From: Candidatus Moraniibacteriota bacterium
GTDB lineage: Bacteria > Patescibacteriota > Minisyncoccia > Moranbacterales > UBA11712
Reading direction: 5' to 3'
Assembly: GCA_028695025.1 (NCBI GenBank)
Contig: JAQVJV010000008.1
Span: 1 to 37,094 of the forward strand
DNA length: 37,094 nucleotides
Position 1 is the first letter of the stretch, and every line of letters starts with the position of its first letter. Made by a program: the position numbers and the translations under genes. The notes under the pieces were generated by a model. It did no database searches. It saw only the letters and a program-made list of their open reading frames with translations, and was not told where the DNA came from. Shown in pieces: positions 3,400 to 35,206 of the stretch.

Positions 3400-3420
3400 A
3401 TAGGTTTTGTCATTTTATTC

Positions 3421-3507
3421 TCTCCCTTTCATAAAGGGAGAGCGAGAGAGGGATTTAATATTTTTTGAAATCCCCTTTTGTTCCCCCTTTTGAAAAGGGG
3501 GAGAAAT
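3421..3507 (+). promoter_or_regulatory. three consecutive perfect hairpins in the 5' leader of the first pilin gene, the last one sequestering the GGGGGAG ribosome-binding site
   Basis: TCTCCCTTT-CAT-AAAGGGAGA (3421-3441). GGGATTT-11nt-AAATCCC. TCCCCCTTTT-G-AAAAGGGGGA (3482-3502) overlaps the SD located 7 nt before the ATG at 3511. Confidence 0.4.
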
Positions 3508-3510
3508 ACT

Positions 3511-4485
3511 ATGAAATTTTCAAAGAAAAATAAAATCTATATAAAAATATTTTTTTCGGCAATCATTCTTTTTTTCGCCGCATCTTCTGCCCATGCCGCG
3601 CTGGTTCCATGTGGGATTGGAGAGGGAAACGCTGACTGTACGCTTTGCCACCTGGTGGTCGGCTTCAAGAATATCTATGACTATCTCCTAACACTTCTTC
3701 TTTCCGCGGCAACGGTGGTGATAATAGTCGCTGGAGTGATATACATGATCTCAAGCGGTAACAAGAATTTGATTGATAAGGCTAAATCGGCTTTCATGTA
3801 CACAATCACAGCAATTGTTCTTGGTCTCACCGCTTGGCTCATGATCAATACGGTTCTCAACGCTCTCGGCTTCAAAAACGCCGGAAGCTGGTGGACCTTC
3901 ACTTGCGATACGACTCAAACATCGGTGAATAATAATCTGAATACGGGAATTAAACTTCCGGGATTAAGTGGAGGAGCGTCAACTGGAAGTCAAACAAATA
4001 AGGCTCAAGGGGACGGAACTTGCGGGGGAATAAAAGATAACGTTGAAGATCCGAACAATTGCGGAAAAACCTCTCAAGCTCTTGACACTTTGTTGGCTTG
4101 TATACAAAGCAGAATGAATGCAACAGGCATTGAAGTAAAAAAAAACTTTAATCCTTTCAAAATTGAGGAAGTTTTTGCGTCTGGAAAACTTTCAATTAGT
4201 ATAGGAATTGATGAAAACAGCCATGCTAATAATTCTTGTCACTATGGTGGCCGGTATTGCCAAGGGCAAGCCAATGCAGCTGATTTGCATGGAGATATGC
4301 CCGCTATAAAAGATGCGGCAATTGCTTGTAACGCTGATACAGTTATCTATGATAGTATGGCTTATTATGGAGGTAAGAGTAAGGCTTATACAGGAGGCAA
4401 TAATAAAACAGGAGATTGGGCGCATGTAAAACATGTCCATGTCAGCGTCAACAACAAAGCCTGCGGATGTGATTATTTAAAATAA
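3511..4485 (+). CDS. TrbC/VirB2-like T4SS pilin-family protein with a ~200-aa Cys-rich C-terminal extension
   Basis: Signal peptide. Conserved pilin core (LLTLLLSAATVVIIVAGVIYMISSGNKNLIDKAKSAFMYTITAIVLGL) shared with four downstream paralogs. C-terminal region has 12 Cys. ATG 3511 preferred over the TTG at 3478 because of the strong RBS. Confidence 0.7.
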   Translation: MKFSKKNKIYIKIFFSAIILFFAASSAHAALVPCGIGEGNADCTLCHLVVGFKNIYDYLLTLLLSAATVVIIVAGVIYMISSGNKNLIDKAKSAFMYTITAIVLGLTAWLMINTVLNALGFKNAGSWWTFTCDTTQTSVNNNLNTGIKLPGLSGGASTGSQTNKAQGDGTCGGIKDNVEDPNNCGKTSQALDTLLACIQSRMNATGIEVKKNFNPFKIEEVFASGKLSISIGIDENSHANNSCHYGGRYCQGQANAADLHGDMPAIKDAAIACNADTVIYDSMAYYGGKSKAYTGGNNKTGDWAHVKHVHVSVNNKACGCDYLK

Positions 4486-4489
4486 AAAG

Positions 4490-5293
4490 ATGAACAAGTT
4501 TTTGAAAGTGTCAATTATAATAATCATTGTTTTCGCTATTGCCATCCTGTCTCTTTGGCTGATTTCAATTTTCAAAGAAAAGCAAGGCCAACCGGAAACT
4601 ACAATAAATGAAACTTCAGAAAATTTGCCCTCCAGTCAGCCGGTTCAATTGCCGGGTAGCAGTCAAGGCCAAGAAGTTTTTCACGATAGTTCAATTCGAG
4701 TTGAAGATTTGGATAGTAAAGAGCAAGTTCAAGCGGCTTTTGAAAAATATGTCGATCAAAACACAAATGATTTCCCGGAATATTTGCAGGATGGAATTTC
4801 AACTGACTATCCAGTGAATGATGAATCCGGAAAAATAGTGGATTTACAAACATTTTTTTCCTTCGTTGGGGCAAATATAAACCCCCAAGTCAAAAAAATG
4901 ATTAATTCTAGTTTCTATGCCTTGTATTATTGTCCCAATGAAAACGGTCAAAAGGCATATGGAATTGCTTTTGACGCTATCTATCCAGATTCGAATAATT
5001 TGCAGTCGCAAAGCGGAGAAATGAAGGGCGCGATGAAAAAATGGGAGCCTTATATACTGAAAGATTTGCATTTCATTCTTTTTCCTGATGACAACATCTC
5101 TGAAAACGATTTGAATCAAGCATCGAACTTTCGAGATGGCGAATTCCGCTATGCAGATATCAATATTTCTGGAAAAAGCGAATCTATTGATTACGCTGTC
5201 AAAACCGACGAAGGCAATGGAGTGAATAGGATTTATATCACCACATCCCAAGAATGTCTCAAGAAATCATTGGATTATCTTTTTGATTATTAA
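4490..5293 (+). CDS. hypothetical membrane-anchored protein (N-terminal TM helix) inside the pilin locus
   Basis: Single N-terminal hydrophobic helix then a 240-aa soluble domain. Tightly packed between pilin genes on the same strand. Confidence 0.55.
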   Translation: MNKFLKVSIIIIIVFAIAILSLWLISIFKEKQGQPETTINETSENLPSSQPVQLPGSSQGQEVFHDSSIRVEDLDSKEQVQAAFEKYVDQNTNDFPEYLQDGISTDYPVNDESGKIVDLQTFFSFVGANINPQVKKMINSSFYALYYCPNENGQKAYGIAFDAIYPDSNNLQSQSGEMKGAMKKWEPYILKDLHFILFPDDNISENDLNQASNFRDGEFRYADINISGKSESIDYAVKTDEGNGVNRIYITTSQECLKKSLDYLFDY

Positions 5294-5306
5294 TATAAAA
5301 ACCAAC

Positions 5307-5951
5307 ATGAAAAAAACCATTCTTTATATCCTTGCGTTATTTTTTTTCACTTCTTTGGCTCTAGCGGCTTATGCGCAAGACATGACACCTATCGGTGAAT
5401 TACAAGATGCTCAAAAAAGCGGAACATATAGAAATCAAGCGGCTATTTCAAGCAACTCTTTTGCCAATCCTCTTGGAGTAGATACAGTTGAAGGCGTACT
5501 GGGGAATATCACGACTTATCTTCGCGGGATCGCCGGGACGATTGCGGTTATTTTCATCATCATCGGCGGAATAATGTACATGCTTTCCGGTGGAGATAAG
5601 GATTCAATTGAACGAGCTAAAAAAACCGTCATTTATGCTTGTGTCGGTCTTGCCATCGTGCTGGCCGCTCCTCTTTTTTATCAAGAAATCAAGGCGGTGC
5701 TCTCTGGAAATAGTCCCGGGTCTGCTTTTCAGTCTCTTCTTACGAACATCTTGAAACTCCTTTTGTCGATTGTCGGTTTTCTTGCTATAATATCAATGGT
5801 TGTCGGCGCCACTTGGATGCTCACGGCGGCGGGCGATGATAATCGGTATGAGCTTGGGAAAAAAATCGTCACCTATGCCATCGTCGGTCTCATTATCGCA
5901 GTCGGTGCATTGGTTATCACCAATCAAGTAGTGAGTCTCGTCAACGGTTGA
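5307..5951 (+). CDS. tandem-duplicated (two-repeat) TrbC/VirB2-like pilin-family protein
   Basis: Signal peptide followed by two copies of the pilin core: ...IAVIFIIIGGIMYMLSGGDKDSIERAKKTVIYACVGLAIVLA... and ...VGFLAIISMVVGATWMLTAAGDDNRYELGKKIVTYAIVGLIIAV... Confidence 0.7.
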   Translation: MKKTILYILALFFFTSLALAAYAQDMTPIGELQDAQKSGTYRNQAAISSNSFANPLGVDTVEGVLGNITTYLRGIAGTIAVIFIIIGGIMYMLSGGDKDSIERAKKTVIYACVGLAIVLAAPLFYQEIKAVLSGNSPGSAFQSLLTNILKLLLSIVGFLAIISMVVGATWMLTAAGDDNRYELGKKIVTYAIVGLIIAVGALVITNQVVSLVNG

Positions 5952-5999
5952 TAAAAAAGAAATTTAAATAAACATTGACCCAAGAAGGGAGGTGAATCG

Positions 6000-6362
6000 A
6001 TGAAAGAAAAAGCAAAAAATATGGTGAAATATTTGTACGCGGTTTTATTCCTGGTTCCTGCGACGACCCTTGCCCAGTTTACCTATCCGAGCGGAACCAA
6101 TCTTCCAGGAGATGGTGGAACCAGTCTTTATACCATCATCCAGAACATCATGCGCTGGCTGCTTTCCATTTTGGGTTTTGTGGCGGTGATCGGCTTTGTG
6201 ATTTCCGGAATTCTCTACCTGGTTGCGGCGGGAGACGAAGATGCCCAAGCGCGGGCCAAACGGGCGATGATCTACTCCATTACGGGAGTGATCGTGGGAA
6301 TGGCTGGGTTGGTGGTGCTCTATGCTGTCGGGAAATTTTGGAATGCCAACTCAAATTTCTAG
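6000..6362 (+). CDS. TrbC/VirB2-like T4SS pilin-family protein
   Basis: GGGAGGTG RBS. Signal peptide. Core motif WLLSILGFVAVIGFVISGILYLVAAGDEDAQARAKRAMIYSITGVIVG. Confidence 0.75.
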   Translation: MKEKAKNMVKYLYAVLFLVPATTLAQFTYPSGTNLPGDGGTSLYTIIQNIMRWLLSILGFVAVIGFVISGILYLVAAGDEDAQARAKRAMIYSITGVIVGMAGLVVLYAVGKFWNANSNF

Positions 6363-6387
6363 TCTTTGAAAAAATTTAGTTTCCACT

Positions 6388-6416
6388 CCCCCCTCCTTAA
6401 AGAGGGGGTTTGTGTA
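6388..6416 (+). terminator. rho-independent terminator after pilin gene 3
   Basis: CCCCCTC-CTTAAA-GAGGGGG hairpin followed by TTTGTGT. A second hairpin TCCCGGC-CTTTGA-GCCGGGA lies at 6476-6495. Confidence 0.5.
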
Positions 6417-6554
6417 TCCGGGCATTTGGTATATAATAAAATCAGATTAAATTTTACATTATTTTCTTGCTGTCATCCCGGCCTTTGAGCCGGGATCCAG
6501 GGTATGAAAATAAAAGTAGCAACTTTGAATGACTTGTAAATTAATTTATATTTT

Positions 6555-6902
6555 ATGATAAAAAAAATAAAAAAAATACTCCCATTATCTATTCTTGCGA
6601 TGACATTGTCCCAACCGGCTTTTGCTCAATGGAATACGTCAAATTATGATTCCACCAAGCTTCCTAAAACAGCGCTTTATTCGATTATCGAAAACACGAC
6701 CAAGTGGCTTTTGAGTGTTTTTGGATTTATCGCAATCATTGGATTTGTTCTTTCTGGAATCATGTATCTCTTGGCAGCGGGTGATGAAAAGACTCAGGAG
6801 CGAGCCAAGCGGGCAATGATATATTCGATTGTTGGAGTAGTGGTTGGTCTTGGGGGGTTGGTAGTGATATATGCTGTTAATTTTTTCTTGAGTCAGGGTT
6901 AA
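6555..6902 (+). CDS. TrbC/VirB2-like T4SS pilin-family protein
   Basis: Signal peptide. WLLSVFGFIAIIGFVLSGIMYLLAAGDEKTQERAKRAMIYSIVGVVVGL. Confidence 0.75.
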   Translation: MIKKIKKILPLSILAMTLSQPAFAQWNTSNYDSTKLPKTALYSIIENTTKWLLSVFGFIAIIGFVLSGIMYLLAAGDEKTQERAKRAMIYSIVGVVVGLGGLVVIYAVNFFLSQG

Positions 6903-6925
6903 GGGTAAAAAATATTTCAGAAGAA

Positions 6926-7288
6926 ATGAAAAAAAATATTCTTAAAAAAACAAAATTTATAACATTATTATTTTTTTTCGGCATTGCTTTTTTGGCAAAT
7001 GCTCAAACCGTGGCTTTACCGAAAAACACTGGTCTTCCAAGTGGGACATTGACCAGTGTCATTTCCAATCTTACAAATTGGCTTTTGGGCATTTTTGGTT
7101 TTTTGGCAATTATCAGTTTTATTATCTCCGGGATCATGTATATTCTGGCTGTTGGGGATGATAAGGCGCAGGAAAAAGCCAAGAAGCAGATGCGGTGGTC
7201 GATTGTCGGGGTTGTTATCGGGCTTGTTGGAGTCATTATCATCAACGCGGTTGACGCACTCCTTCGCGGTGTGAATAACAAGTTCTAA
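6926..7288 (+). CDS. TrbC/VirB2-like T4SS pilin-family protein
   Basis: Signal peptide. WLLGIFGFLAIISFIISGIMYILAVGDDKAQEKAKKQMRWSIVGVVIGL. Confidence 0.75.
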   Translation: MKKNILKKTKFITLLFFFGIAFLANAQTVALPKNTGLPSGTLTSVISNLTNWLLGIFGFLAIISFIISGIMYILAVGDDKAQEKAKKQMRWSIVGVVIGLVGVIIINAVDALLRGVNNKF

Positions 7289-15809: not shown

Positions 15810-17105
15810 TTATTTCTCCTCTTCGTTTGTTTTTTCTGCTTCATCTTCTTCTTTTTCAATATCTGTTTTCTCATTACCACTTTCCTTTTCATCAGGTTCA
15901 TCTTTTTTTGTCTCTCCTGCCACAACATCAATTTTCCAACCGGTGAGTTTGGCGGCGAGTCGGACGTTTTGTCCTTGTTTTCCGATAGCAAGGGACAGTT
16001 GGTCAGACGGGACAAAAACGCGGGCTTCCTGATTTTCTTCATCAAGTTCCACTTTCAAAACTTTGGCCGGGGAAAGGGCGTTCGAGATGAATTTTGTCGG
16101 GTCTTCATTCCATTCAATGATATCAATTTTTTCTCCTCCCAATTCATCTATGACAGCTTGGACGCGGGTTCCTTTTTGTCCGACACAAGATCCGATCGGG
16201 TCGACTCCCTCTTCGCTCGACCAAACGGCGATTTTGGTCCTGGAGCCGGCTTCCCGGGACATGGCTTTTACTTCCACTGTTCCGGTGAAAATCTCCGGTA
16301 CCTCAATCTCAAAAAGCTTTTGCACGAGGGCCGGATGCGAACGGGAGAGGATGATTCCGGGGCCTTTGGCGTCTGATTCCACCTTCATGAGATAAATCTT
16401 GAGGCGCTGTCCCAAGCGATATCTTTCTCCATCAACCTGTTCCGAGGGAAACAAGATTCCGGTTGATTTTCCAAGATCAATGAAGATATTTCTTCCCTCG
16501 ATCCTTTGGATGACTCCGCTCAATACCTCCCCTTCTTTTTGCTTATACTCTTCATACATCGAATCGCGTTCCGCCTCGCGGATTTTTTGGATAATGACTT
16601 GCTTGGCGGTTTGGGCGGCAACGCGTCCGTAATCGCTCTTTGATTCCAATTTTTCCTCAATGATGTCCCCCACTTTGGCATCCGATTTCACTTTTTGCGC
16701 CTCTTCGACAGTGAGGTCCCGTTCCGGATTATAGCGAGGGATTTTTTCTTCGTCTGATTCGTTAGTATCCAGGGTTTCTTTCTCGCGAGAAGTTTCTTCC
16801 GGCTTGTCCGCCAAAGATTCATCGTCGTCGGATTCGAAAACACGGGTGGTTTCGTCCACCACTTCTTTCACAAGGAAAAAGTCTGCTCCCCCGGTGACTT
16901 CGTCGAATTGGGCCCGGATGTGTTGTCCGCGCCGGCCATAGTCTTTTTTGTAGGCGGCAGCAAGGGCTGATTCAATAGCTTCAATCACCTTGTTTTTATC
17001 AATTCCTTTTTCTTCGGAAATTTGAGCGATAGCGCTTCCAAATTGCCCGAGTCGCCCAGCTTGTTGTTCTTCGGCTGGCTTTTTGATTTTCTTTGGTCGT
17101 GGCAT
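15810..17105 (-). CDS. nusA: transcription termination/antitermination factor NusA with acidic C-terminal tail
   Basis: N-terminal domain ([14 protein letters not shown]), S1 domain and two KH domains ([43 protein letters not shown]). Confidence 0.9.
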
Positions 17106-20037: not shown

Positions 20038-21618
20038 TTACTCCTTTGTCGAATCGGGGATATTTTTTGAAAAAATAGCTAAAAAAAGAATTGGAGCTAT
20101 GAATATAATGGTACCGATTTTGATATCCCAAAAGTAGTGGTCAAAAAACGAGATGACTAAAAAAGATATAGTAATAACATAATATTTAAATATTGTCAAT
20201 ATACTTCCCTTTTCCTTTGCTTCTCGCCAGGTATGTCCAAGATAAGTGATCAGTGAAACAAGGGCCAGTGAAACACCAATTGTCCCGAGTTCGCTGGCAA
20301 TTAATAAGTATATATTGTGGACCGGTTGATACTGCCAAGAGGGCAAATGCGGATATTTCAAATGTTCCCGAAAAACAAATTGGCCTAACCCTATTCCAAC
20401 TAATGGATGGTGGCTTATGATTTCACATGAAACTGCGGAGTACTGTTTTCTTTCGGCTAGGGACTGCTCCGAGAATAAGGTTGTGTAAGTTTTAGCCACA
20501 AAAGTTAACGTGAAGAGTGCGATAACAAGGGCGAGGGCAGAAAAAATAGCCACCCGCCTTGAAAAACAATATTTTTGTTTTTCAGCTGTTCGGGAAAGGT
20601 TTTCGGCCACGCCCGAGAAAGAATGAAACAAAGATGGAAAGAAGCTTGGCCGGTTATTTGTACTCTGGTTTGTGGGAGTGGAAGAAATAGCGTGAAACCT
20701 TTTCATGTTCCACAATACAAGAATAATCATCGCTATCAGATCGCTAAGTATGGCTGATCGGGAGAAAGTAACGAGAAGGCCTAGGGTCAAAATGATCCAA
20801 ATGTTTACTGCAAGCCGGGTGGGAATTTTGTCAGACAAGGTTTCGTGTGAAACTATAATGCCCCTTGTTTTTCTGCCGTAGAGGCTAAAGAGCCTTACGA
20901 GCACAAGATTTGTGGCCAAAACTTGAGGTATGATCAGGAATCCACTTAAAATATTCGAGTGCGGGAGTGTTCCATAGGCGCGAATATGTTTCATGTGTAA
21001 TATTATGATTTTCGCTACGCCGTTAATATTGGGACCCAGAAGGCTTTCGCCTAGAAAATGAAGACCAATGGAGGAATTGGCCAGGAATTGAATTATGGCC
21101 AAGGCTGATTGGAATAAGCCGTTGGCAATGAGGGCCAGGAGCAGATATTGTTGCCAGCGTTTTTCATGAAACAACTTATAGGCAATGACGCTGAAAAAGA
21201 GCAATTCAAGCCAAGTGGCGAATCTATGCCAGCTTATGAGAGGAAATTTAGCCCAGAAAATCGAGGATCCCGCCCAAAGGAAAAATAAAAAGAGAAAAAT
21301 AGTTGCATGTGTAATGCTTTTGGGGTTTAATATTGACTTTATGCTAAATTTATATTCTGATACCGTAATAATTTCGTAATACGCTCTAAATTGACAATAT
21401 AGGTATTTTATTATATAAATAAATATAGTTAGCAGGATAAGTAAATCCGCCCAGGTGAAACTAGGAGTCAGATATTCATTGAATCCCCCATTCAAAAAGG
21501 AATATTTGGTCAGAAAAACTTTGCGGATATTGAGAGTGAAGGTAGTGAAAAAAAGAATAATAAGCAGTTTCTCGACATTATTCCACAACCAGGTCAGTTT
21601 TTGTCTCAAGGTATCCAT
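20038..21618 (-). CDS. O-antigen-ligase family (Wzy_C) polytopic membrane protein
   Basis: Multi-TM. Central loop with RAYGTLPHSNILSGFL, an O-antigen ligase-like His-containing motif. Tandem with the previous gene. Confidence 0.6.
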   Translation of the reverse strand: MDTLRQKLTWLWNNVEKLLIILFFTTFTLNIRKVFLTKYSFLNGGFNEYLTPSFTWADLLILLTIFIYIIKYLYCQFRAYYEIITVSEYKFSIKSILNPKSITHATIFLFLFFLWAGSSIFWAKFPLISWHRFATWLELLFFSVIAYKLFHEKRWQQYLLLALIANGLFQSALAIIQFLANSSIGLHFLGESLLGPNINGVAKIIILHMKHIRAYGTLPHSNILSGFLIIPQVLATNLVLVRLFSLYGRKTRGIIVSHETLSDKIPTRLAVNIWIILTLGLLVTFSRSAILSDLIAMIILVLWNMKRFHAISSTPTNQSTNNRPSFFPSLFHSFSGVAENLSRTAEKQKYCFSRRVAIFSALALVIALFTLTFVAKTYTTLFSEQSLAERKQYSAVSCEIISHHPLVGIGLGQFVFREHLKYPHLPSWQYQPVHNIYLLIASELGTIGVSLALVSLITYLGHTWREAKEKGSILTIFKYYVITISFLVISFFDHYFWDIKIGTIIFIAPILFLAIFSKNIPDSTKE

Positions 21619-21707
21619 GAAACAATTTTATCACGAAACAAGAAAAACAACGATTGACGAATAGCTAAAATATATCTATGATAAAGCAGTTAATGCCAGA
21701 AATTTAA

Positions 21708-21780
21708 GGGCCTTTAGCTCATCTGGTAGAGCGCATCCATGGCATGGATGAGGTGACCGGTTCGAGTCCGGTAAGGTCCA
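21708..21780 (+). tRNA. tRNA-Ala (anticodon GGC)
   Basis: GGGCCTT..AAGGTCC acceptor with G3:U70. Anticodon arm CATCC-ATGGCAT-GGATG. Confidence 0.85.
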
Positions 21781-21786
21781 CAATAT

Positions 21787-21858
21787 GTCCTTGTAGTTCA
21801 ATGGATAGAACAATGGCGTCCTAAGCCATTGATGTAGGTTCGATTCCTACCAAGGACG
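21787..21858 (+). tRNA. tRNA-Arg (anticodon CCT)
   Basis: GTCCTTG..CAAGGAC acceptor. Anticodon arm ATGGC-GTCCTAA-GCCAT. T arm GTAGG-TTCGATT-CCTAC. Confidence 0.85.
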
Positions 21859-21955
21859 CAAGGGTATTTTTCTTCAATAAAAATTATAAAATGTAGCTTA
21901 AGTATTAAGCTGTTTTTGTGATGACAAATAGGTTTTTGCATGATAAAATAAGCCC

Positions 21956-22969
21956 ATGAAAAAGAAAAAGGCAAGCGATTTTCCAAAAGGGGAAATTGTG
22001 ATTTATAAAGCCAAAGACGGAATAGTAAAACTAGAAGTGGAGCTTCAGGAAGAAAATATATGGCTTGATGCGCATCAGATAGCTATGCTTTTTGGCGTGA
22101 ATCGCCCGGCGATTGTTAAGCATATAAACAATATTTACAAAACAGAAGAGCTTGTTGAAAAAGTAACCTGTTCCATTTTGGAACAGGTTGCCGCAGACGG
22201 AAAGATGAGAAAAATGAATTTGTATAATCTGGATATGATAATTTCCGTCGGTTATCGTGTAAACTCGCAAAGAGCTACACAATTCCGCATCTGGGCCACG
22301 AGAATTCTGAAAAATCATTTGTTAAAAGGTTTCACGCTGAACGAACAAAGGTTGAAGGGCTATCATCAGGCGAAATTGGGAGAATTGGAAAGCGCTTTGC
22401 GGCTTTTGAAGCGGGCGATTGACAGCAAGAAACTTCTCAAGGGAGAAGCTGAAGGACTCTTGAAAGTGATTACGGATTATACCAATTCCTGGATCCTGCT
22501 TCAAAAATACGACGAGGGAAGATTGGTTATCCGGAAAAATATTTTGAAAATCGGCAGGGAGCTCGAATATGATAATGCGAAAGATTCAATTGCGAAATTG
22601 AAAAACAGCCTGATCAAAAAGAAAAGCGCGACGGATATTTTCGGACAGGAAAGAGGACACGGACTCGAAGCGATTTTTGGAAATCTCAAACAATCATTTG
22701 GCGGGAAGAAACTTTATCCGACGCTTGAAGAACAGGCGGCGCATCTTCTCTATTTCGTGATCAAGGATCATCCTTTTGTCGATGGCAACAAGCGGATTGC
22801 CTCATTTTTGTTTGTGAATTTTCTCGCTGAAAACAACCAGCTTCTTCGCAAAAACGGCGAGCGGAAAATCAACGACAACGCCTTGGTGGCCCTTGCGCTT
22901 CTAGTTGCTCAAAGTCATCCGAAAGAAAAAGAATCAATGGTCGCGCTGGTGACGAATTTGCTTTTCTAG
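21956..22969 (+). CDS. RhuM-family / Fic-Doc family protein (N-terminal RhuM-type DNA-binding region, C-terminal Doc-like Fic motif)
   Basis: N-terminus EIVIYKAKDGIVKLEVELQEENIWLDAHQIAMLFGVNRPAIVKHINNIY (RhuM signature). C-terminal HPFVDGNKR (Doc-type HxFx(D/N)GNKR). Confidence 0.75.
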   Translation: MKKKKASDFPKGEIVIYKAKDGIVKLEVELQEENIWLDAHQIAMLFGVNRPAIVKHINNIYKTEELVEKVTCSILEQVAADGKMRKMNLYNLDMIISVGYRVNSQRATQFRIWATRILKNHLLKGFTLNEQRLKGYHQAKLGELESALRLLKRAIDSKKLLKGEAEGLLKVITDYTNSWILLQKYDEGRLVIRKNILKIGRELEYDNAKDSIAKLKNSLIKKKSATDIFGQERGHGLEAIFGNLKQSFGGKKLYPTLEEQAAHLLYFVIKDHPFVDGNKRIASFLFVNFLAENNQLLRKNGERKINDNALVALALLVAQSHPKEKESMVALVTNLLF

Positions 22970-23030
22970 TCTTTTTTATATTTTTTTTACTGAGGATTGG
23001 AGGGTTGGGGATAACAATAAAATAATTGAA

Positions 23031-23463
23031 GTGATCAACAAAATTCCGAAACCTATAATTGAAATAATCCAAAAAATCGAAGCCGCTGGTTTTGAAGCTT
23101 TTGTCGTGGGCGGATGCGTGCGGGATTTGCTGATGGACATGGAACCAAAAGACTGGGATGTGACGACGAATGCGAAGCCGGAAGATGTGATGAAAATTTT
23201 TCCGGACAGTTTCTATGAGAATGATTTTGGAACGGTAGGGGTTAAAATCAAAAATCAAAAGTTGATAAGGAAAAAACTGAAGTCATTGAAGTGACTACAT
23301 ATCGTATCGAATCAAAATACTCTGACAAGCGGCGGCCGGATGAAGTGCGGTTTGCGAAAACGCTCGAGGAAGATTTGGGAAGGCGTGATTTCACGATTAA
23401 TGCGTTGGCATTGAAAATCAAACCTCACCCCGACCCTCTCCCCGCCAAAGGCGGGCAGGCTTA
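23031..23463 (+). pseudogene. duplicated, frameshifted 5' fragment of the CCA-adding enzyme gene ending inside a MITE copy
   Basis: 23031-23440 is ~90-95% identical to 26172-26640 (MINKIP...FEAFVVGGCVRDLLMDMEPKDWDVTTNAKPE...). It lacks the ~90-nt KDTGAQK...EITEVVEV segment. +1 frameshift in the A-run at ~23270. Stop codon lies inside the repeat element. Confidence 0.7.
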
Positions 23464-23558
23464 GTAAGGAGAGGGAGGCGTCAAGTTGAACTCATTATTG
23501 GCAAAACTGATCGCCTTCTCCTTTATAAGGAGAAGGAGGGATGAGGTCGATGAGGTCG
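23423..23558. mobile_element. MITE-like palindromic element, copy 1 (inverted orientation, far end degenerate)
   Basis: Starts with CCTCACCCCGACCCT. Contains CCCTCTCC..GGAGAGGG (with a nested CCGCC-AAAG-GCGGG insertion) and CCTTCTCCTTTATAAGGAGAAGG hairpins. AGGGATGAGGTCG is the reverse complement of copy-2 CGACCTCATCCCT. Spacer is homologous to the copy-2 spacer in reverse. Confidence 0.55.
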
Positions 23559-23969
23559 AAAAATAAAAAAAGCCCGCAAGCAGTTTTGCTCACGGGTCGG
23601 ATTCTCCGCTCAACGAGTCCGCGAATGATCCATGAACTCGAGAAAGCGGAGAAGCGATGCTTGTTTCCCTTTCTTCCCAAACCGTTTGTCTGGGGCGTAG
23701 TTTTTCGGAGCCGGGTTCAACTAATCCCGTTGATCTCACTCCTTTCCTGATCTATACCCCCTACCTGTGGCTGGGATTTTCAGGGAAAACAAGGCGCTTC
23801 TCCCTCTGAATCCACTTTCCAAAAAGAAAATGAATTCGGATAGAGAAAGCAGGCGATGGATATTTTTTGAAAGACCATCCTTCCACTCAACGAGCTCGCG
23901 AACAATTTCGCAAACTCGAGAAAGTGGGGGAACGCAGTGCATTGAAAGCGTTCCCCGAAAAATTAGTGG

Positions 23970-24560
23970 TTAAAGAACAGTTTTGGACCCCTCAATGAGG
24001 GTTCGAAGAATCGTTGCCCAAGGTTTCAATGGGGTGCAATTCTCTTTTTCGTCTTCATTTAGCCCTTCCCATTGTGAGCGGGTAATGGCTCCCAATCTTT
24101 TGTGATAGTGGTTTGGGTATTCTCGTCTAGCCAAGTCTAGTAGCAAAAAAATGTTTACCCGTCCACACCTTATCTCAAAATTTTCGTACGGTTTATGACA
24201 AACCCAATCTATATGGGTTAACCGGTTTGAAATTTCATAACGATCTTCATGCGAGATTGTTTCTCCGTGAAGATTCAGATTTGAAACTAGGGCTAAGCCC
24301 TTGAGTTCTTTTTTTTGACCAAACCTATTTAACGATGCCAGGAATAATCGTAAGCCGTTTTCCCAAGAGGGCTGCTCGCCCTTATGGTTAGGTAATTCAA
24401 GGTCCGTCAAAATGAAATCCTGATTCTTGAATTTATCTCTTGCTTCACTAAATGACGATGCAAAGACTACTTGCACCGGCATTGCAGATAACTCTTTTTT
24501 TGCCCAATCCAATTGAATAGGACTGTCTTCAATTACCAAAACTTTATATTTCGGTTCCAT
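23970..24560 (-). CDS. orphan response-regulator receiver (REC)-domain protein with uncharacterised C-terminal domain
   Basis: KVLVIEDSPIQ...ILTDLELP (phospho-acceptor Asp)...ALVSN...HKPY (K-P) match CheY-like receiver landmarks. No HTH or known output domain. Confidence 0.5.
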   Translation of the reverse strand: MEPKYKVLVIEDSPIQLDWAKKELSAMPVQVVFASSFSEARDKFKNQDFILTDLELPNHKGEQPSWENGLRLFLASLNRFGQKKELKGLALVSNLNLHGETISHEDRYEISNRLTHIDWVCHKPYENFEIRCGRVNIFLLLDLARREYPNHYHKRLGAITRSQWEGLNEDEKENCTPLKPWATILRTLIEGSKTVL

Positions 24561-24583
24561 TTCTTCTCCTTGTTCTATTTCTA

Positions 24584-24612
24584 TACCGCCGAGGCAGGCG
24601 GTTTTTTTTAGT
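24584..24612 (+). terminator. strong plus-strand rho-independent terminator with no annotated plus-strand gene upstream
   Basis: ACCGCC-GAGGCA-GGCGG followed by TTTTTTTT. Confidence 0.45.
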
Positions 24613-24718
24613 TTTCAATGAGCTCGGAGGGTTTCCTCCTGGAAAATCACCGAGTGATGATTTTTCAGGAAGGGGAAATGATTTTTCCCGAATCCTGTCT
24701 TGGCCAAGGGGCGAAGCC

Positions 24719-24952
24719 CTAGCAGCCTATATTGTTGTCAACGTTGTTCATGCTCCAGTTGTGAGAGATTCTGCGCGCAGCTTTTGCGGAAAGGATATTC
24801 ATAGGGACAAAGAGCGTGGCTGCCAATGTGATCCAGATATTCGTCAGAAGGTGGATTCCGATGGCGATTATCGCGATGATCATGAGGAGGGTAGCTATTC
24901 TTTGGCTCTTCGGAATCACGTCGTCTGTGTATTTGCTGGCGTAGTGTCTCAT
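24719..24952 (-). CDS. hypothetical small membrane protein (77 aa, two hydrophobic segments)
   Basis: ORF with hydrophobic helices LLMIIAIIAIGIHLL and ITLAATLFVPMNIL. No homology recognised. Confidence 0.3.
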   Translation of the reverse strand: MRHYASKYTDDVIPKSQRIATLLMIIAIIAIGIHLLTNIWITLAATLFVPMNILSAKAARRISHNWSMNNVDNNIGC

Positions 24953-25170
24953 ATGTTTGGATTTAAGGATTATATGTCTTTCGGAATTTTTCGGTCTTTC
25001 AGCTTAACAGGGAATTATAGCAAGAAAATAGGGAAAAGTCAATAAAGCGAGAAAACGAATAAGTCAAAATATGGCTAATATAAAGCAAGAATATGAGATA
25101 TATAATAAATTCATCAAAAATATTGACTATGTGGCAAAAAGGGTGTAGAATAGAAATAGACTTTCTCGAA

Positions 25171-25296
25171 CCTCACCCCGACCCTTTTCGACCTCATCCC
25201 TACCTTCTCCTTATAAAGGAGAAGGCGATTATTTTTACCGATGAATATATTGATGCCGAGTTCCCTCTCCTTACTAAGGAGAGGGTCAGGGTGAGG
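25171..25296. mobile_element. MITE-like palindromic element, copy 2 (complete, 126 bp, 15-bp terminal inverted repeats)
   Basis: Left TIR CCTCACCCCGACCCT. Right end AGGGTCAGGGTGAGG. Internal hairpins CCTTCTCCTTATAAAGGAGAAGG and CCCTCTCCTTACTAAGGAGAGGG. Ends 9 nt before the trmB-paralog ATG. Confidence 0.6.
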
Positions 25297-25305
25297 TTTA
25301 AAACT

Positions 25306-26166
25306 ATGAATCTCACTGAATCACTCCAGCATATCGGTCTTAATGAAAAAGAAGCCAAAGTATATTTGGCGCTTTTGCAATTGGGAAAAACGACCGCTTA
25401 TTCCGTTTCGGTGCGAAGCGGAATCAAAAAACCGACGACATACGTCATCCTTGAGCAATTGGTCAAAAAGGGGTATGCTTTTGAGATCCCAAGGGCGAGA
25501 AAACACGTCTTTTTCGCCGAATCGCCGGACAAATGTTTCGCGATGGCGCGGGAGAAGCTGGTCTTGGCGCAGGAATCACTGCCGGAACTCATGGCGGCAA
25601 GGAAGGGGCAGAGCGAGAAAGTGAATATTTCCTATTTTGAAGGGCTTGATGGAATCAGGGAGATGTACGGCAAGTTTTTTGAGTTCATGAAAAAAAAGCC
25701 GGCTTCGGAGCGAGTCTGTTCCGGTTTCTATGCCCAGGCGCGGGGTATATCCAAGGAAGTGGATGATTTTTGGAAGGAGTATAATGCTCAAGTGGTGGCG
25801 CTTGATATCAAGAGGCGGGGACTGACTCCGAAAGACGAGACATTGAAATGGTATTTCGAAAACGCGAAGAATTTGAATATTGATCTTATTGGACTACCGA
25901 AAGAAATATATGACAGCAATGTCTCATTTGAAATTTTTGACGGGTTCGTTCAGATTATCTCCTACGGTTATCTCCAAGGCACCTTGATTGAAAACCGCGA
26001 TGTGGCCGATTCATTGCGGCAGATATTTGAAATAATCTGGAATGTGTATAAGAATGAAAAAGAAGTTGAAGAAACCTCACTCCAGCCTATTAAACCTCAC
26101 CCCGACCCTCTCCTTATCAAGGAGAGGGAGCCCGGCGAAAACAGATTTATTGGCGGAAGAGGTTGA
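25306..26166 (+). CDS. TrmB-family HTH transcriptional regulator (paralog 2) with MITE-derived C-terminal tail
   Basis: MNLTESLQHIGLNEKEAKVYLALLQLGKTTAYSVSVRSGIKKPTTYVILEQLVKKGYA aligns with paralog 1 from its first codon. The ORF-track start 25093 is read-through of the MITE. The last 24 codons (..KPHPDPLLIKEREPGENRFIGGRG) are encoded by mini-MITE copy 3. Confidence 0.75.
   Translation: MNLTESLQHIGLNEKEAKVYLALLQLGKTTAYSVSVRSGIKKPTTYVILEQLVKKGYAFEIPRARKHVFFAESPDKCFAMAREKLVLAQESLPELMAARKGQSEKVNISYFEGLDGIREMYGKFFEFMKKKPASERVCSGFYAQARGISKEVDDFWKEYNAQVVALDIKRRGLTPKDETLKWYFENAKNLNIDLIGLPKEIYDSNVSFEIFDGFVQIISYGYLQGTLIENRDVADSLRQIFEIIWNVYKNEKEVEETSLQPIKPHPDPLLIKEREPGENRFIGGRG
26095..26136. mobile_element. 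mini-MITE (TIR + one hairpin, 45 bp core) at the 3' end of the trmB paralog
   Basis: AAACCTCACCCCGACCCTCTCCTTATCAAGGAGAGGGAGCCCGGC, identical to copy 4. Confidence 0.55.
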
Positions 26167-26171
26167 AACAT

Positions 26172-27791
26172 ATGATCAATAAAATTCCGCAACCAATTAT
26201 AAATATTATAAAAAAGCTCGAAGCCGCCGGTTTTGAGGCTTTTGTGGTGGGCGGATGCGTGCGGGATTTGCTGATGGACATGGAACCAAAAGACTGGGAT
26301 GTGACAACGAATGCCAAGCCGGAGGAAGTGATGAAAATTTTTCCGGACAGTTTCTACGAGAATGATTTTGGAACGGTAGGAGTGAAAGTTAAAAATCACA
26401 AAGACACAGGAGCACAAAAAGCCAAACAGAGCCTAAAAGCACAAATAACAAAGACCGAGAAGAATGGGGGCGACGAAATTACGGAAGTTGTGGAGGTTAC
26501 GACCTATAGAATAGAAAGCAAATATTCTGACAAGCGGCGGCCGGATGAAGTGCGGTTTGCGAAAACGCTCGAAGAAGATTTGGGAAGGCGTGATTTCACG
26601 ATTAATGCGTTGGCGTTGAAAGTCAAACCTCACCCCGACCCTCTCCTTATCAAGGAGAGGGAGCCCGGCTATAAAGTTGTAGATTTGTTCAATGGGCAAG
26701 ATGATTTGAAGAATAAAATAATTCGAGCTGTTGGCGACCCAAACGAGCGGTTTGACGAAGATGCGCTGAGGATGATGCGGGCGGTTCGATTTGCAATAAC
26801 ACTCACAAATGAAAACGAAGTAAAACGAATTAGAACAAATAGCGGACCGAGAAAATTGAGTGAAGAAACGCCTTTTACAATTGAGGAAAAAACCGGGAAG
26901 GCGATTGTGAAGAACGCGAAAAATTTGAAATTCATTTCCCGGGAACGCATACAAGATGAATTGAATAAAATTTTGGTTTCGGATTTTGCGGCGGAAGGAG
27001 TTGAGTTGTTGCGGGAGCTGAAACTCCTCCAATATATTCTTCCGGAGCTGGAAAAAGGATACGGCGTGGGACAAAACCGCCATCACATATATACCATCTG
27101 GGAGCACTCGATCTTGTCTCTCAAAAATTGCCCGTCAAGGAAACTTGAAGTGCGGCTGGCAACCCTGCTTCATGACATTGCGAAGCCTGATACAAAAAGA
27201 GGGGAAGGGGCGTATTCGACTTTCTATAATCACGATCACGTCGGAGCTCGATTGGTTGAAAAAATTTTGAAGCGGCTTAAGTATTCCTCGGAGATCATCC
27301 GCAAAGTGAAGTTGCTCGTGGACAACCATATGTTTTACTACAACGTTGACGAAGTGGGAGCGTCGAGCGTCCGCCGGCTGGTCCGGAAAGTCGGCCTTGA
27401 GAATATCGATGATTTGATTGACCTTCGCGTTGGAGACCGGCTGGGTTCGGGCGTGCCAAAGGCTGTCCCGTACAAACTGCGCCATTTCAAATATATGGTG
27501 GACAAGATTTCCCACGATCCTTTGTCGGTCAAAATGCTCAAAGCGGATGGGAATGATATCATGAAAGAGTTGGATATGGAGCCTGGACAGAAGATCGGGG
27601 CGATTTTGGATGTTTTGCTTTCAGAGGTGATTGAAGATCCGAAGAAAAATAGAAAAGACATGTTACTCGAGCGAGCGAGCGCGTTGAGCGGCGAGGATCT
27701 TTCCAAACTTCGTGAAATGGCGAAAGAAAAAATTGAAGAAAAAAAAGAAGAAGAGGATAAGGAAATAAAAAATAAGTATTGGGTGAAATAA
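26172..27791 (+). CDS. cca: CCA-adding enzyme / tRNA nucleotidyltransferase (Pol-beta NTase head + HD domain) carrying an in-frame 15-codon mini-MITE insertion
   Basis: [32 protein letters not shown]-domain HDIAKPDT...H..H motifs. ATG 26172 (RBS GGAAGAGG) preferred over TTG 26163. Insertion encodes KPHPDPLLIKEREPG. Confidence 0.85.
   Translation: MINKIPQPIINIIKKLEAAGFEAFVVGGCVRDLLMDMEPKDWDVTTNAKPEEVMKIFPDSFYENDFGTVGVKVKNHKDTGAQKAKQSLKAQITKTEKNGGDEITEVVEVTTYRIESKYSDKRRPDEVRFAKTLEEDLGRRDFTINALALKVKPHPDPLLIKEREPGYKVVDLFNGQDDLKNKIIRAVGDPNERFDEDALRMMRAVRFAITLTNENEVKRIRTNSGPRKLSEETPFTIEEKTGKAIVKNAKNLKFISRERIQDELNKILVSDFAAEGVELLRELKLLQYILPELEKGYGVGQNRHHIYTIWEHSILSLKNCPSRKLEVRLATLLHDIAKPDTKRGEGAYSTFYNHDHVGARLVEKILKRLKYSSEIIRKVKLLVDNHMFYYNVDEVGASSVRRLVRKVGLENIDDLIDLRVGDRLGSGVPKAVPYKLRHFKYMVDKISHDPLSVKMLKADGNDIMKELDMEPGQKIGAILDVLLSEVIEDPKKNRKDMLLERASALSGEDLSKLREMAKEKIEEKKEEEDKEIKNKYWVK
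26628..26669. mobile_element. mini-MITE (45 bp) inserted in-frame inside the cca coding sequence
   Basis: Identical 45-mer to 26091-26135. 45 nt = 15 codons, reading frame preserved. Confidence 0.55.
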
Positions 27792-34453: not shown

Positions 34454-35206
34454 CTATTTCTTTGCGCTCTTCCAGGCGATATCAAAAAGGACTTTCATAG
34501 CCTGGGAAAATTCCGGGCTTTCAATAACGAGCGCATATGATTCTTCGCGTGAAGAAATAATCGTCACAATGTGGTCATAAATGCTGATAAAAGGTTCAAA
34601 ATTAGTTTCAAGGTCAAGATAGCGAACTTCGCGAAGAATGTCCTTGTTTTCTCTTTTCAAATACCAGTCTTTTTCCGAAGGAGGCATAACCTCTTTTTTG
34701 CAGCGTAGCGACTGCACTCGGATGCCCCGCTTCACTCTTTCATCAATTTGGCGGTGAATGAATCTGGTGCCCAAAATATCTGTCACATTGTCAACCAATG
34801 CAAAATCGCGTCGAAATTTTTCCTGCGCATTGAGCGAATCCATCAAAATCCGGCGCATGCCCGGAAGATCATCATAAAACCGCACCACGGGCTTTGTTCC
34901 CTTGGCGCCCTGAAGCGCGACCAGCAGGGGAATGAGCTGGCCGACAACAGTTGACTGGCTTTCCAGAATTTCTTTGAACTTGTTGGGATGCTCCGCCGTA
35001 TAGGAAATGCGTGTTCCGTTAACTGTTTTTGAAGCGAGGCCTTTTTCCGAAATATCTTCCATAATCTTATAAATCGTCGTCCGTTCAATTCCGGCATCTT
35101 TGGCAATGGCGTGGGGGCTTGCTTTTTGAAGTTTGATGAGAGAAATATAGGCCTTGGCATGATTGTCCTTCACTCCTAAAGCCTCCAAAAGCTGATAAAT
35201 ATCCAT
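34454..35206 (-). CDS. TrmB-family HTH transcriptional regulator (paralog 3)
   Basis: MDIYQLLEALGVKDNHAKAYISLIKLQKASPHAIAKDAGIERTTIYKIMEDISEKGLA. Divergent from the radical-SAM gene. Confidence 0.75.
   Translation of the reverse strand: MDIYQLLEALGVKDNHAKAYISLIKLQKASPHAIAKDAGIERTTIYKIMEDISEKGLASKTVNGTRISYTAEHPNKFKEILESQSTVVGQLIPLLVALQGAKGTKPVVRFYDDLPGMRRILMDSLNAQEKFRRDFALVDNVTDILGTRFIHRQIDERVKRGIRVQSLRCKKEVMPPSEKDWYLKRENKDILREVRYLDLETNFEPFISIYDHIVTIISSREESYALVIESPEFSQAMKVLFDIAWKSAKK

Follow-up and report, generated by a model that had tools for sequence, protein, structure and literature searches.

Results

Repeat units around the cca gene

The DNA analyzed here (the window) is a complete contig of 37,094 bp from Candidatus Moranbacteria, a member of the Candidate Phyla Radiation (CPR; Patescibacteria). 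It carries ordinary housekeeping genes, among them those for NusA, trigger factor, ClpP, IF-2, RbfA, L19, and ten tRNAs. A cluster of six full and two partial units of one short palindromic repeat (chance expectation ~0) is located at 23.4–26.7 kb, a region that spans a gene for a TrmB-family regulator (25306..26166, + strand; Pfam) and reaches into an intact gene for a CCA-adding enzyme (cca; 26172..27791, + strand; Pfam PolyA_pol, RNAbd, HD, and tRNA_NucTran2_2). The CCA-adding enzyme is 100% identical to a protein of a Moranbacteria metagenome-assembled genome; an exact look-up of the protein with the start chosen in this analysis found no record. An earlier inspection of the letters (the sequence-only reading) had seen in this cluster four copies of an uncharacterized MITE-like element (MITE, miniature inverted-repeat transposable element) with 15-bp terminal inverted repeats (TIRs). 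A dispersed, non-autonomous palindromic repeat family is indeed present. The units, however, are probably intrastrand triplex motifs of the type named BoxC, potential intrastrand triplex (PIT) element, or TM_ECO in Escherichia coli, and not parts of a TIR-bounded transposon.

The repetition is evident from the 15-mer, the hairpin cores, and the folding, all of which go beyond shuffled sequence. The 15-mer CCTCACCCCGACCCT occurs in four exact copies on the + strand (at 23423, 25171, 26095, and 26628), with one mismatch on the − strand (25282–25296), and with three mismatches at 25192; 0.47 copies are expected, and none of 100 shuffles reached six. The hairpin core CTCCTT-N3-AAGGAG is found five times in the window versus 0 expected. 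Folded as single-stranded DNA (ssDNA), all four stretches that had been called copies were better than shuffles (z −3.4 to −6.1; copy 2, −6.1), with nearest-neighbour folding covering the hairpin only. A covariance model (R1) built from 36 copies of other organisms, the window and E. coli copies being excluded, found six full units in the window at 62.2, 62.0, 54.9, 47.1, 39.0, and 27.7 bits. The repeats are there as had been noticed, but their number has to be corrected from four copies to six units of two subtypes, A and B. The only match of R1 outside the cluster at E<0.1 in the 37 kb was a weak one at 3416–3455 (15 bits, E=0.024). A degenerate unit considered at 22998–23014 was rejected; it has at least two mismatches to the 13-nt core and was missed by R1.

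Two solo A-type units on the + strand, 26092..26136 (62.2 bits; R1 match 26091–26132) and 26625..26669 (62.0 bits; 26624–26665), are identical 45-mers at a spacing of 533. Their identity had been recognized before, with offsets that were wrong. Copy 1 and copy 2, the latter being the presumed 126-bp element, both consist of one A and one B unit in inverted orientation, with homologous spacers. In copy 2, a B-type unit (25188..25229, + strand, 47.1 bits; tail CCTCATCC, stem CCTTCTCC/GGAGAAGG) is paired with an A-type unit (25259..25300, − strand, 54.9 bits) whose G-rich strand is the + strand and which ends 6 nt upstream of the TrmB start codon. In copy 1, the A-type unit (23424..23479, + strand, 27.7 bits) contains a nested hairpin of 19 nt, and the B-type unit (23510..23550, − strand, 39.0 bits) carries a duplicated tail piece reaching 23558. 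The nested GC-rich mini-hairpin (23442–23460, CCGCCAAAGGCGGGCAGGC) lies in the stem-loop of the A unit; no second copy of it was seen in the window.

The two partial units on the + strand consist of a tail only. One of them (25167..25186; A type, 12.2 bits) is the left '15-bp TIR' of copy 2, and the other (26071..26089; third strand AACCTCACTCCAGCC), a weak match with 9.7 bits and an E-value of 0.46, adjoins the solo unit 26092..26136 on its 5′ side. Tail-only partials and duplicated tail pieces (the latter at 23541–23558) are situated directly 5′ of full units, and a similar arrangement was seen in L029 (L-numbers, here L029, L088, L121–L124, L126, and L132, denote loci fetched from other genomes or contigs). 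Such pieces may be the footprint of slippage or of a copying mechanism.

Triplex architecture of the unit

On its G-rich strand (CCCTCTCCTTGATAAGGAGAGGGTCGGGGTGAGGTT) the A unit reads CCCTCTCCTT-GAT-AAGGAGAGGG-TCG-GGGTGAGGTT, that is, a 10-nt pyrimidine stem, a 3-nt loop, the purine stem, a second 3-nt loop, and a 10-nt G/T-rich block. This third block, GGGTGAGGTT, mirrors the purine stem AAGGAGAGGG. In the alignment of copies, the unit of ~40 nt appears as a C-rich 'tail' followed by a 10-bp hairpin; on the C-rich strand subtype A is AACCTCACCC-CGA-CCCTCTCCTT-loop-AAGGAGAGGG and subtype B GACCTCATCC-CTA-CCTTCTCCTT-loop-AAGGAGAAGG. Based on this symmetry, the ssDNA of a unit is predicted to be capable of folding as a hairpin with a reverse-Hoogsteen third strand.

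Triads were scored with G*G:C, A*A:T, and T*A:T as the allowed class II triads, stems of at least 8, loops of 1–6, and at most one mismatch. Three A units have 10/10 triads, the interrupted A unit 8/8, and both B units 9/10. In subtype B, a whole triad of subtype A (C:G*G) is replaced by T:A*A, with coordinated changes at stem position 3, at its partner, and in the third strand. Another Moranbacteria genome has this change too, in a B/A inverted pair inside a called O-antigen-ligase (Wzy_C) ORF (L121 5211–5298, also L122). An ITxF-like scan of the window returned seven class II motifs, compared with none in 30 shuffles; the seven include an inverted pair of other sequence types at 3420–3502. 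Among the fetched loci, 175 of 434 pyrimidine/purine hairpins had 8/8 triads downstream, whereas the upstream control contained no hairpin with 7 or more. Distinct stem sequences in these loci number about 35, each paired with its own mirrored third strand.

The supposed transposon ends follow the same rules, and the '15-bp TIR' is the predicted third strand of the triplex plus loop 2. Copy 2 seems to possess a terminal inverted repeat because it holds one extra tail. If the repeats were classical MITEs, they would be deletion derivatives of an insertion sequence (IS) with 15-bp TIRs, dependent on a DDE transposase. The ends of copy 2 are complementary at 14 of 15 positions, and its ~130 bp with an AT-rich interior, the presence of multiple copies, and the long hairpin fold (z −6.1) are what one would look for. 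Like the bacterial MITEs Correia, Nezha, and ERIC, the repeats are small, non-coding, multi-copy, able to form long hairpins, and sometimes intragenic. Yet two ends exist on copy 2 only, and the commonest form here and elsewhere is a unit of 36–45 nt with a single 'end'. The 'TIR' covaries with the stem, no target-site duplication was seen, and the basic unit lacks a TIR pair as well as a parent IS among the window ORFs. The ORFs of the 37-kb window include no transposase, nor did a transposase with such ends turn up. The chance that the MITE interpretation is correct thus appears very slim.

In other genomes, 140 of the 152 hairpins are accompanied by exactly one tail. This asymmetric combination of a tail and a hairpin is also what a REP/REPIN-like element moved in trans by an HUH (RAYT/IS200-type) transposase would show, the enzyme recognizing tail and hairpin and inverted pairs being mobile. 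Such an explanation does not conflict with the triplex architecture, although conservation would then be caused by the enzyme. Further features would suit it: units occur as inverted dimers with a spacer, solo units exhibit neither target-site duplication nor TIR, and copies are homogeneous within a genome. REP insertions that leave the frame intact have been described for RAYT subclass 2.4, a subclass present in Cyanobacteria, Bacteroidetes, and scattered phyla (PMC6006769). REP, BIME, and REPIN elements with their RAYTs also share the short hairpin, the asymmetric 5′ tail, the high copy number, and the inverted dimers of two subtypes (Y and Z in BIMEs) with our units. By contrast, the GT[AG]G tetranucleotide that defines REPs (0–2 nt 5′ of the hairpin foot) is missing, the invariant flank being AACCTCACCC-NNN, and REP sequences are species-specific (PMC6006769) while the core described here is the same across phyla. 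Neither a RAYT nor a Y1_Tnp domain was found in the window. Moreover, recognition by an enzyme fails to predict that the tail mirrors the stem, with a third strand of its own for each different stem. Taken together, mobilization by an HUH enzyme appears unlikely.

Relationship to BoxC, PIT, and TM_ECO elements

BoxC repeats of the 1990s were described anew as PIT elements by Hoyne and Maher (2000, 2002), according to their citation in PMC4666352. The TM_ECO pattern is CCCTCNCCC-N3-6-GGGNGAGGG-N3-GGGNGAGGG, in which the second G-rich block lies antiparallel on the purine stem via reverse-Hoogsteen pairing (PMC4666352). It is represented by 3610 copies in 262 proteobacterial genomes; the 23 copies of strain MG1655 are 'always intergenic' and without strand bias, and no association with transposons, phages, or plasmids was found (PMC4666352). 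E. coli loci with the motif are significantly more rearranged between strains, and inverted pairs always consist of one type A and one type B motif (PMC4666352). Holder et al. 2015 left the origin and the mode of spread unclear (PMC4666352).

A 42-nt consensus was found, at 85% identity over 41 nt, in 2984 of 5426 complete E. coli genomes. The E. coli match that was examined, a motif pair between fepB and entC, corresponds to TM_ECO #7/#8 (Table 1 of PMC4666352). With R1, the scores are 42.4 bits for TM_ECO #8, 25.5 bits for TM_ECO #7, and 28–62 bits for the window units. Common to the E. coli elements and the window units are the five-block architecture with a 3-nt loop 2, the mirrored G-rich third strand, the class II purine motif, and eight of ten triads of the same sequence (GGAGAGGG / GGGTGAGG). 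In both cases stems are invariant and loops variable, and units are found as solos and as inverted pairs of two subtypes, without an associated transposase and in rearrangement-prone loci. A+B inverted pairs are present in the window at 23424–23550 and 25188–25300 and also in L121/L122.

Three differences distinguish the window units from TM_ECO. The distal two triads are T:A*T in the window and C:G*G in E. coli, and the host is a CPR bacterium. Finally, E. coli copies are always intergenic, whereas two of six window units and 15 of 28 sampled CPR units (~54%) lie in frame inside genes. Because two distal triads differ, the window unit is a sequence variant rather than TM_ECO sensu stricto. 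It apparently represents a BoxC/PIT/TM variant in a new host lineage, the CPR. The proposal of an uncharacterized family new in this lineage is therefore superseded, as the units belong to BoxC/PIT/TM_ECO by both architecture and sequence.

Units inside genes of CPR bacteria

Unit 26625–26669 is in frame within the intact cca gene, where it encodes KPHPDPLLIKEREPG between RDFTINALA and DLFNGQDDLKNKIIR (site 2). The 3′ end of the TrmB-family ORF contains unit 26092–26136, likewise translated as KPHPDPLLIKEREPG; this unit and the preceding partial tail make up most of a C-terminal extension of ~30 residues. Hence, the description of the repeats as being without coding capacity was incomplete in that the host ORFs continue in frame through both solo units.

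Moranbacteria CCA enzymes contain two hypervariable loop sites, site 2 and site 1, the latter at window positions 26403–26477 (amino acids 78–102). Some orthologs are empty at both sites, in several the unit occupies one of the two sites or both, and others bear different palindromic-looking inserts. In an AlphaFold (AF2) model of the CCA enzyme, the site-2 insert (amino acids 154–164) and the site-1 insert (amino acids 78–102) have predicted local distance difference test (pLDDT) values below 50, and the site-2 insert sits between strands E148–151 and E167–170. A filled cca site reads ..ATT-CAA-CCTCACCCC..GGAGAGGGAG-GCGGGA-TTT.. and an empty ortholog AAGATA-AAAAATTCCGAT-TTTGAA. No target-site duplication emerged from this comparison, and no direct repeats flank any unit. 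The other inserts that recur at CCA sites 1 and 2 (KVRPFPSS..GIPQGQTLKNS, QGSTFPL..NSSRPNL, and TNQSPTFPLLERSSRNSSKSDF) suggest that there are further intragenic repeat families in CPR bacteria.

Additional CPR genes with the unit, all Pfam-confirmed, encode UvrC, IF-2, UvrA, LeuRS (twice), an M16 peptidase, FemAB, methylpurine glycosylase (MPG, twice), dihydrofolate reductase, GluRS, and peptide deformylase. Different host genes read the unit in different frames, and each of the three sense frames occurs (PHPxPLLxKERE, TSPQPSPYKGEG, and LTPTLSLxRRG), so that no peptide is conserved. In CPR-labelled loci, 15 of 28 units are in open frames of at least 200 codons, close to the chance level given by a fraction of 0.58 at random positions in the same loci; the corresponding values for low-GC non-CPR loci are 10 of 59 units versus 0.65. 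Units are oriented unevenly: in 13 of the 15 intragenic cases the sense strand is the C-rich one, and stop codons in the antisense frames (TGA in GGGTGAGG) account for at least part of this. In the library searched, no paper was found that connects CPR bacteria with repeats of this kind, and concatenated PHPxPLLxKERE peptides run against 5.8 billion proteins gave no candidates, an uninformative outcome.

The genic location bears on the possibility that the repeat is a signal acting in cis, be it a terminator, an mRNA stabilizer, a hairpin that hides an AAGGAG resembling a Shine-Dalgarno sequence, or a small RNA of whalefall-1 kinship. AAGGAG is indeed located within the hairpin, in L124 there are 10 nt between the end of the unit and the cca start, copy 2 has its A unit in a similar position with respect to TrmB, and units in L132 come after successive genes. 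The consensus of the whalefall-1 RNA motif (Rfam RF01762; Weinberg et al. 2010, PMC2864571), CUCUCCUU..GGAGAG-second hairpin-AGGGUGAGG, fits the G-rich strand of the unit, and two-hairpin variants of the unit exist in other genomes. The whalefall-1 match of A unit 25259..25300, however, reaches 17.4 bits compared with a gathering score of 37. At the Rfam gathering threshold, tRNAs were the sole matches in the window, and the E-value mode yielded only non-specific miRNA-type hairpin matches plus the weak whalefall-1 match. Nothing was detected in 18 loci at any Rfam gathering score, nor whalefall-1 at E≤1 in six loci with the two-hairpin variant. Units in genes are mostly antisense to the whalefall-1 orientation, as mRNA carries the C-rich strand in the great majority of genic cases. 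About half of the CPR copies are within coding sequences of unrelated genes, and stems are invariant instead of covarying as RNA pairs. As far as the citation of Hoyne & Maher 2002 in PMC4666352 goes, PIT elements have neither promoter nor terminator activity in E. coli. A cis-acting signal is thus highly improbable.

Proposed constraint on the DNA of genic units

Four orthologous site-2 copies (window, L123, L124, and L126) from proteins that are 64–80% identical were compared. Their 30 structural nucleotides are 100% identical in all pairs, in contrast to the six loop nucleotides, of which only 0–67% are identical. The flanking 120 nt of catalytic-domain codons are 72–89% identical, with 45–78% identity at third positions. 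The two copies in L123, at sites 1 and 2, match each other in full, loop included, whereas orthologous copies differ in their loops. Invariance of 30 nt next to drifting loops indicates either a strong constraint on the structural blocks or continual homogenization or re-insertion. Neither peptide nor RNA accounts for the pattern because frames vary, purine-motif triplexes do not form in RNA, and the mRNA is mostly the C-rich strand. We infer that the constraint acts on DNA structure.

Rearrangement at the cca locus

A truncated 5′ copy of cca with one frameshift (23031..23441, + strand) is ~88% identical to 26172–26646. It has a GTG start, the frameshift is in an A-run, many differences are synonymous, and its site-1 allele is a different one; among 120 homologs it is closest to the resident cca. 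Homology stops inside the A unit that opens composite copy 1 (23424..23479), which thereby doubles as the site-2 unit of the fragment, and the junction is a 24-nt identical stretch. Beyond it, the spacer and the B unit of copy 1 are homologous to copy 2. The simplest reading is that the fragment arose by ectopic recombination between a unit in a cca allele and a unit in an intergenic composite, which fits the published link between the motif and instability.

In relatives the gene order is Wzy_C, variable genes (HAD, Ddl, RhuM/Fic, DUF2204), small ORFs, TrmB, and cca. Since relatives share this order upstream of cca, the genes between the two cca copies are native and only the 410-bp fragment is extra in the window. 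This disposed of the idea that the 3.2 kb between the cca 5′ copies are an integrated island with the 45-mer as att site; relatives have the same genes, and there is no integrase. Derivation of the composite spacer from cca was likewise rejected (similarity not significant, p=0.18). The gene content from Wzy_C to cca (window 20038–26166) is variable among related Moranbacteria, and the window TrmB is 24–26% identical to the TrmB upstream of cca in L121/L124. The Moranbacteria genome with L121/L122 has a cca free of units and units elsewhere.

A diverged cca allele joined at a 24-nt identity could also point to a strain-mixing assembly chimera, as such a stretch is a plausible mis-join point for an assembler. 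Together with the confinement of all units of the 37 kb to 3.3 kb, save the pair of another type at 3.4 kb, it might suggest that the repeats are a local artefact of this kind or the product of a single tandem duplication. At its left junction, however, the fragment has no repeat, and a chimera would therefore need two independent mis-joins. In addition, the unit is present at the same cca site and in the same TrmB-cca spacer in independent assemblies, and in more than 100 other genomes. A local artefact is consequently very unlikely; the family is not a purely local duplication, since the same unit exists in related Moranbacteria and in many phyla.

Distribution across genomes

A scan of prokaryotes with one genome per species for CCTCACCCCNNCCCTCTCCTT gave at least 120 loci compared with ~4 by chance. 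The matches listed include Nostoc, Methylobacterium, Bacteroidota, Nitrospirota, Planctomycetota, Armatimonadota, Myxococcota, Gammaproteobacteria, and many Patescibacteria, and nearly all of those listed run on into the same hairpin. Because the core motif is present in many phyla, it does not define a lineage-specific new family. In viral contigs the motif is rare (six loci), and the B tail had no match in the viral scan. BLAST searches with a 50-mer of the window against plasmids and phages hit one large Methylobacterium plasmid-type replicon and no phage. Individual loci show further arrangements: a cyanobacterial contig carries a tandem array of five 41-bp units (L088 1792–1960), and a contig classed as viral carries four units (L132 805–9618), at least three of them within ~25 nt past the stop of a listed ORF.

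Other features of the window

The weak R1 match near 3.4 kb belongs to an inverted pair of two other triplex-motif types (3420..3502, no strand assigned). The first (3420–3453; G strand on +; CTCTCCCTTT/AAAGGGAGAG/GAGAGGGATT) has 10/10 triads, and the second (3470–3502; G strand on −; TCCCCCTT/AAGGGGGA/AAGGGGAT) has one mismatch. The pair belongs to the same motif class but to another sequence family. Of the two hairpins previously suggested as relatives of the cluster repeats, the one at 3421–3507 is thus accounted for, whereas that at 6388–6416 is unsupported (E 0.3–1). Its position is immediately upstream of the first ORF in a cluster (3478–7288), with an overlap into that ORF's 5′ end; four of the six ORFs in the cluster encode TrbC/VirB2-like pilin paralogs.

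The NusA_N Pfam match (window 15810–17105) extends over 159 residues for a model of 119 positions, implying an insertion of ~40 residues; there is no triplex motif in it. The 37 kb contain three genes for TrmB-family regulators (1107–1844, 25306–26166, and 34454–35206).

Discussion

Our assignment of the cca-region repeats to the BoxC/PIT/TM family is probably correct, but several points weigh against it or limit its reach. Triplex formation by the window units is a prediction from sequence. Holder et al. (PMC4666352) obtained stable triplexes in vitro for single strands, yet in vivo dimethyl sulfate (DMS) footprinting could not detect the triplex. RNA does not form purine-motif triplexes (PMC4666352), and in DNA the duplex is a competitor of triplex folding. 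Mirror symmetry could in principle stem from a mutational or copying mechanism instead of selection. The literal TM_ECO pattern is not matched by the window unit CCCTCTCCTT-N3-AAGGAGAGGG-N3-GGGTGAGGTT, and no donor or target footprints were resolved at the cca sites. In Joint Genome Institute (JGI) metagenomes the exact A 38-mer and the exact B 27-mer had 0 matches each, so that the copy number of this genome is known for the 37 kb alone. Lastly, the one rearrangement at cca is an anecdote and not a rate. On the other side, the triplex mirror rule accounts for all conserved blocks. For this reason, mimicry of the 16S 3′ end or a Shine-Dalgarno sequence and FtsK/SpoIIIE recognition sequences, both considered as the cause of conservation across phyla, were dropped.

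We propose that the units are non-autonomous DNA which may be kept, copied, or homogenized by host replication, repair, or recombination, or by an enzyme acting in trans. A hairpin or triplex formed in transient ssDNA would stall polymerases and promote slippage as well as ectopic recombination between units. Such events would account for the duplicated cca 5′ fragment and for the variable gene content of the locus. Intragenic units could survive by keeping the frame and by landing in disordered surface loops or protein tails.

Rickettsia palindromic elements (RPE), reportedly described by Ogata et al. in 2000, are the closest precedent for the latter situation. RPEs are ~100–150 bp in size, restricted to Rickettsia, and have a conserved peptide per family. 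The parallel had been drawn before; it is apt, and more so than was realized at that time because two units are in frame inside genes. In both systems a bacterium with a reduced genome carries palindromic repeats in frame in unrelated housekeeping genes; surface loops tolerate them, and they lack a transposase of their own. In contrast to RPEs, the unit described here has 36–45 nt, occurs across phyla and is used in three frames, its defining feature being triplex mirror symmetry. No RPE-domain model was among the listed matches (E≤1) for unit-bearing cca, TrmB, LeuRS, and MPG proteins in the NCBIfam library, which presumably includes such models. A 2024 review still treats RPEs as an exceptional case (PMC10969869).

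It seems slightly less likely than not that coding DNA of Patescibacteria does not exclude BoxC-like triplex motifs, many essential genes carrying them in frame about as often as random placement would give. This would be a second, independent case of the RPE kind, made from a motif that bacterial phyla have in common. The invariance and triad covariation of the units would then be comparative evidence for triplex-forming potential being maintained in vivo, something that biochemistry in E. coli was unable to demonstrate.

Our study replaces a wrong label, that of a MITE with TIRs, by a testable structural one, the triplex third strand, and extends the BoxC/PIT/TM family to the CPR. New are the Moranbacteria contig as host DNA, the in-frame genic units, and the cca 5′ fragment that ends inside a unit. 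The units account for many short 'insertions' in CPR housekeeping proteins, such as the three peptides given above. They also flag likely recombination sites as well as assembly breaks and chimeras in metagenome-assembled genomes of CPR bacteria. With orthologs that possess or lack a unit, covariation of whole triads, and invariant structural bases within coding sequence, the CPR copies are natural experiments on the relevance of triplexes in cells and on the spread of the motif. Worth following is the combination of in-frame motifs in essential CPR genes, against which there is apparently no selection, with the comparative signal of maintained triplex-forming blocks.

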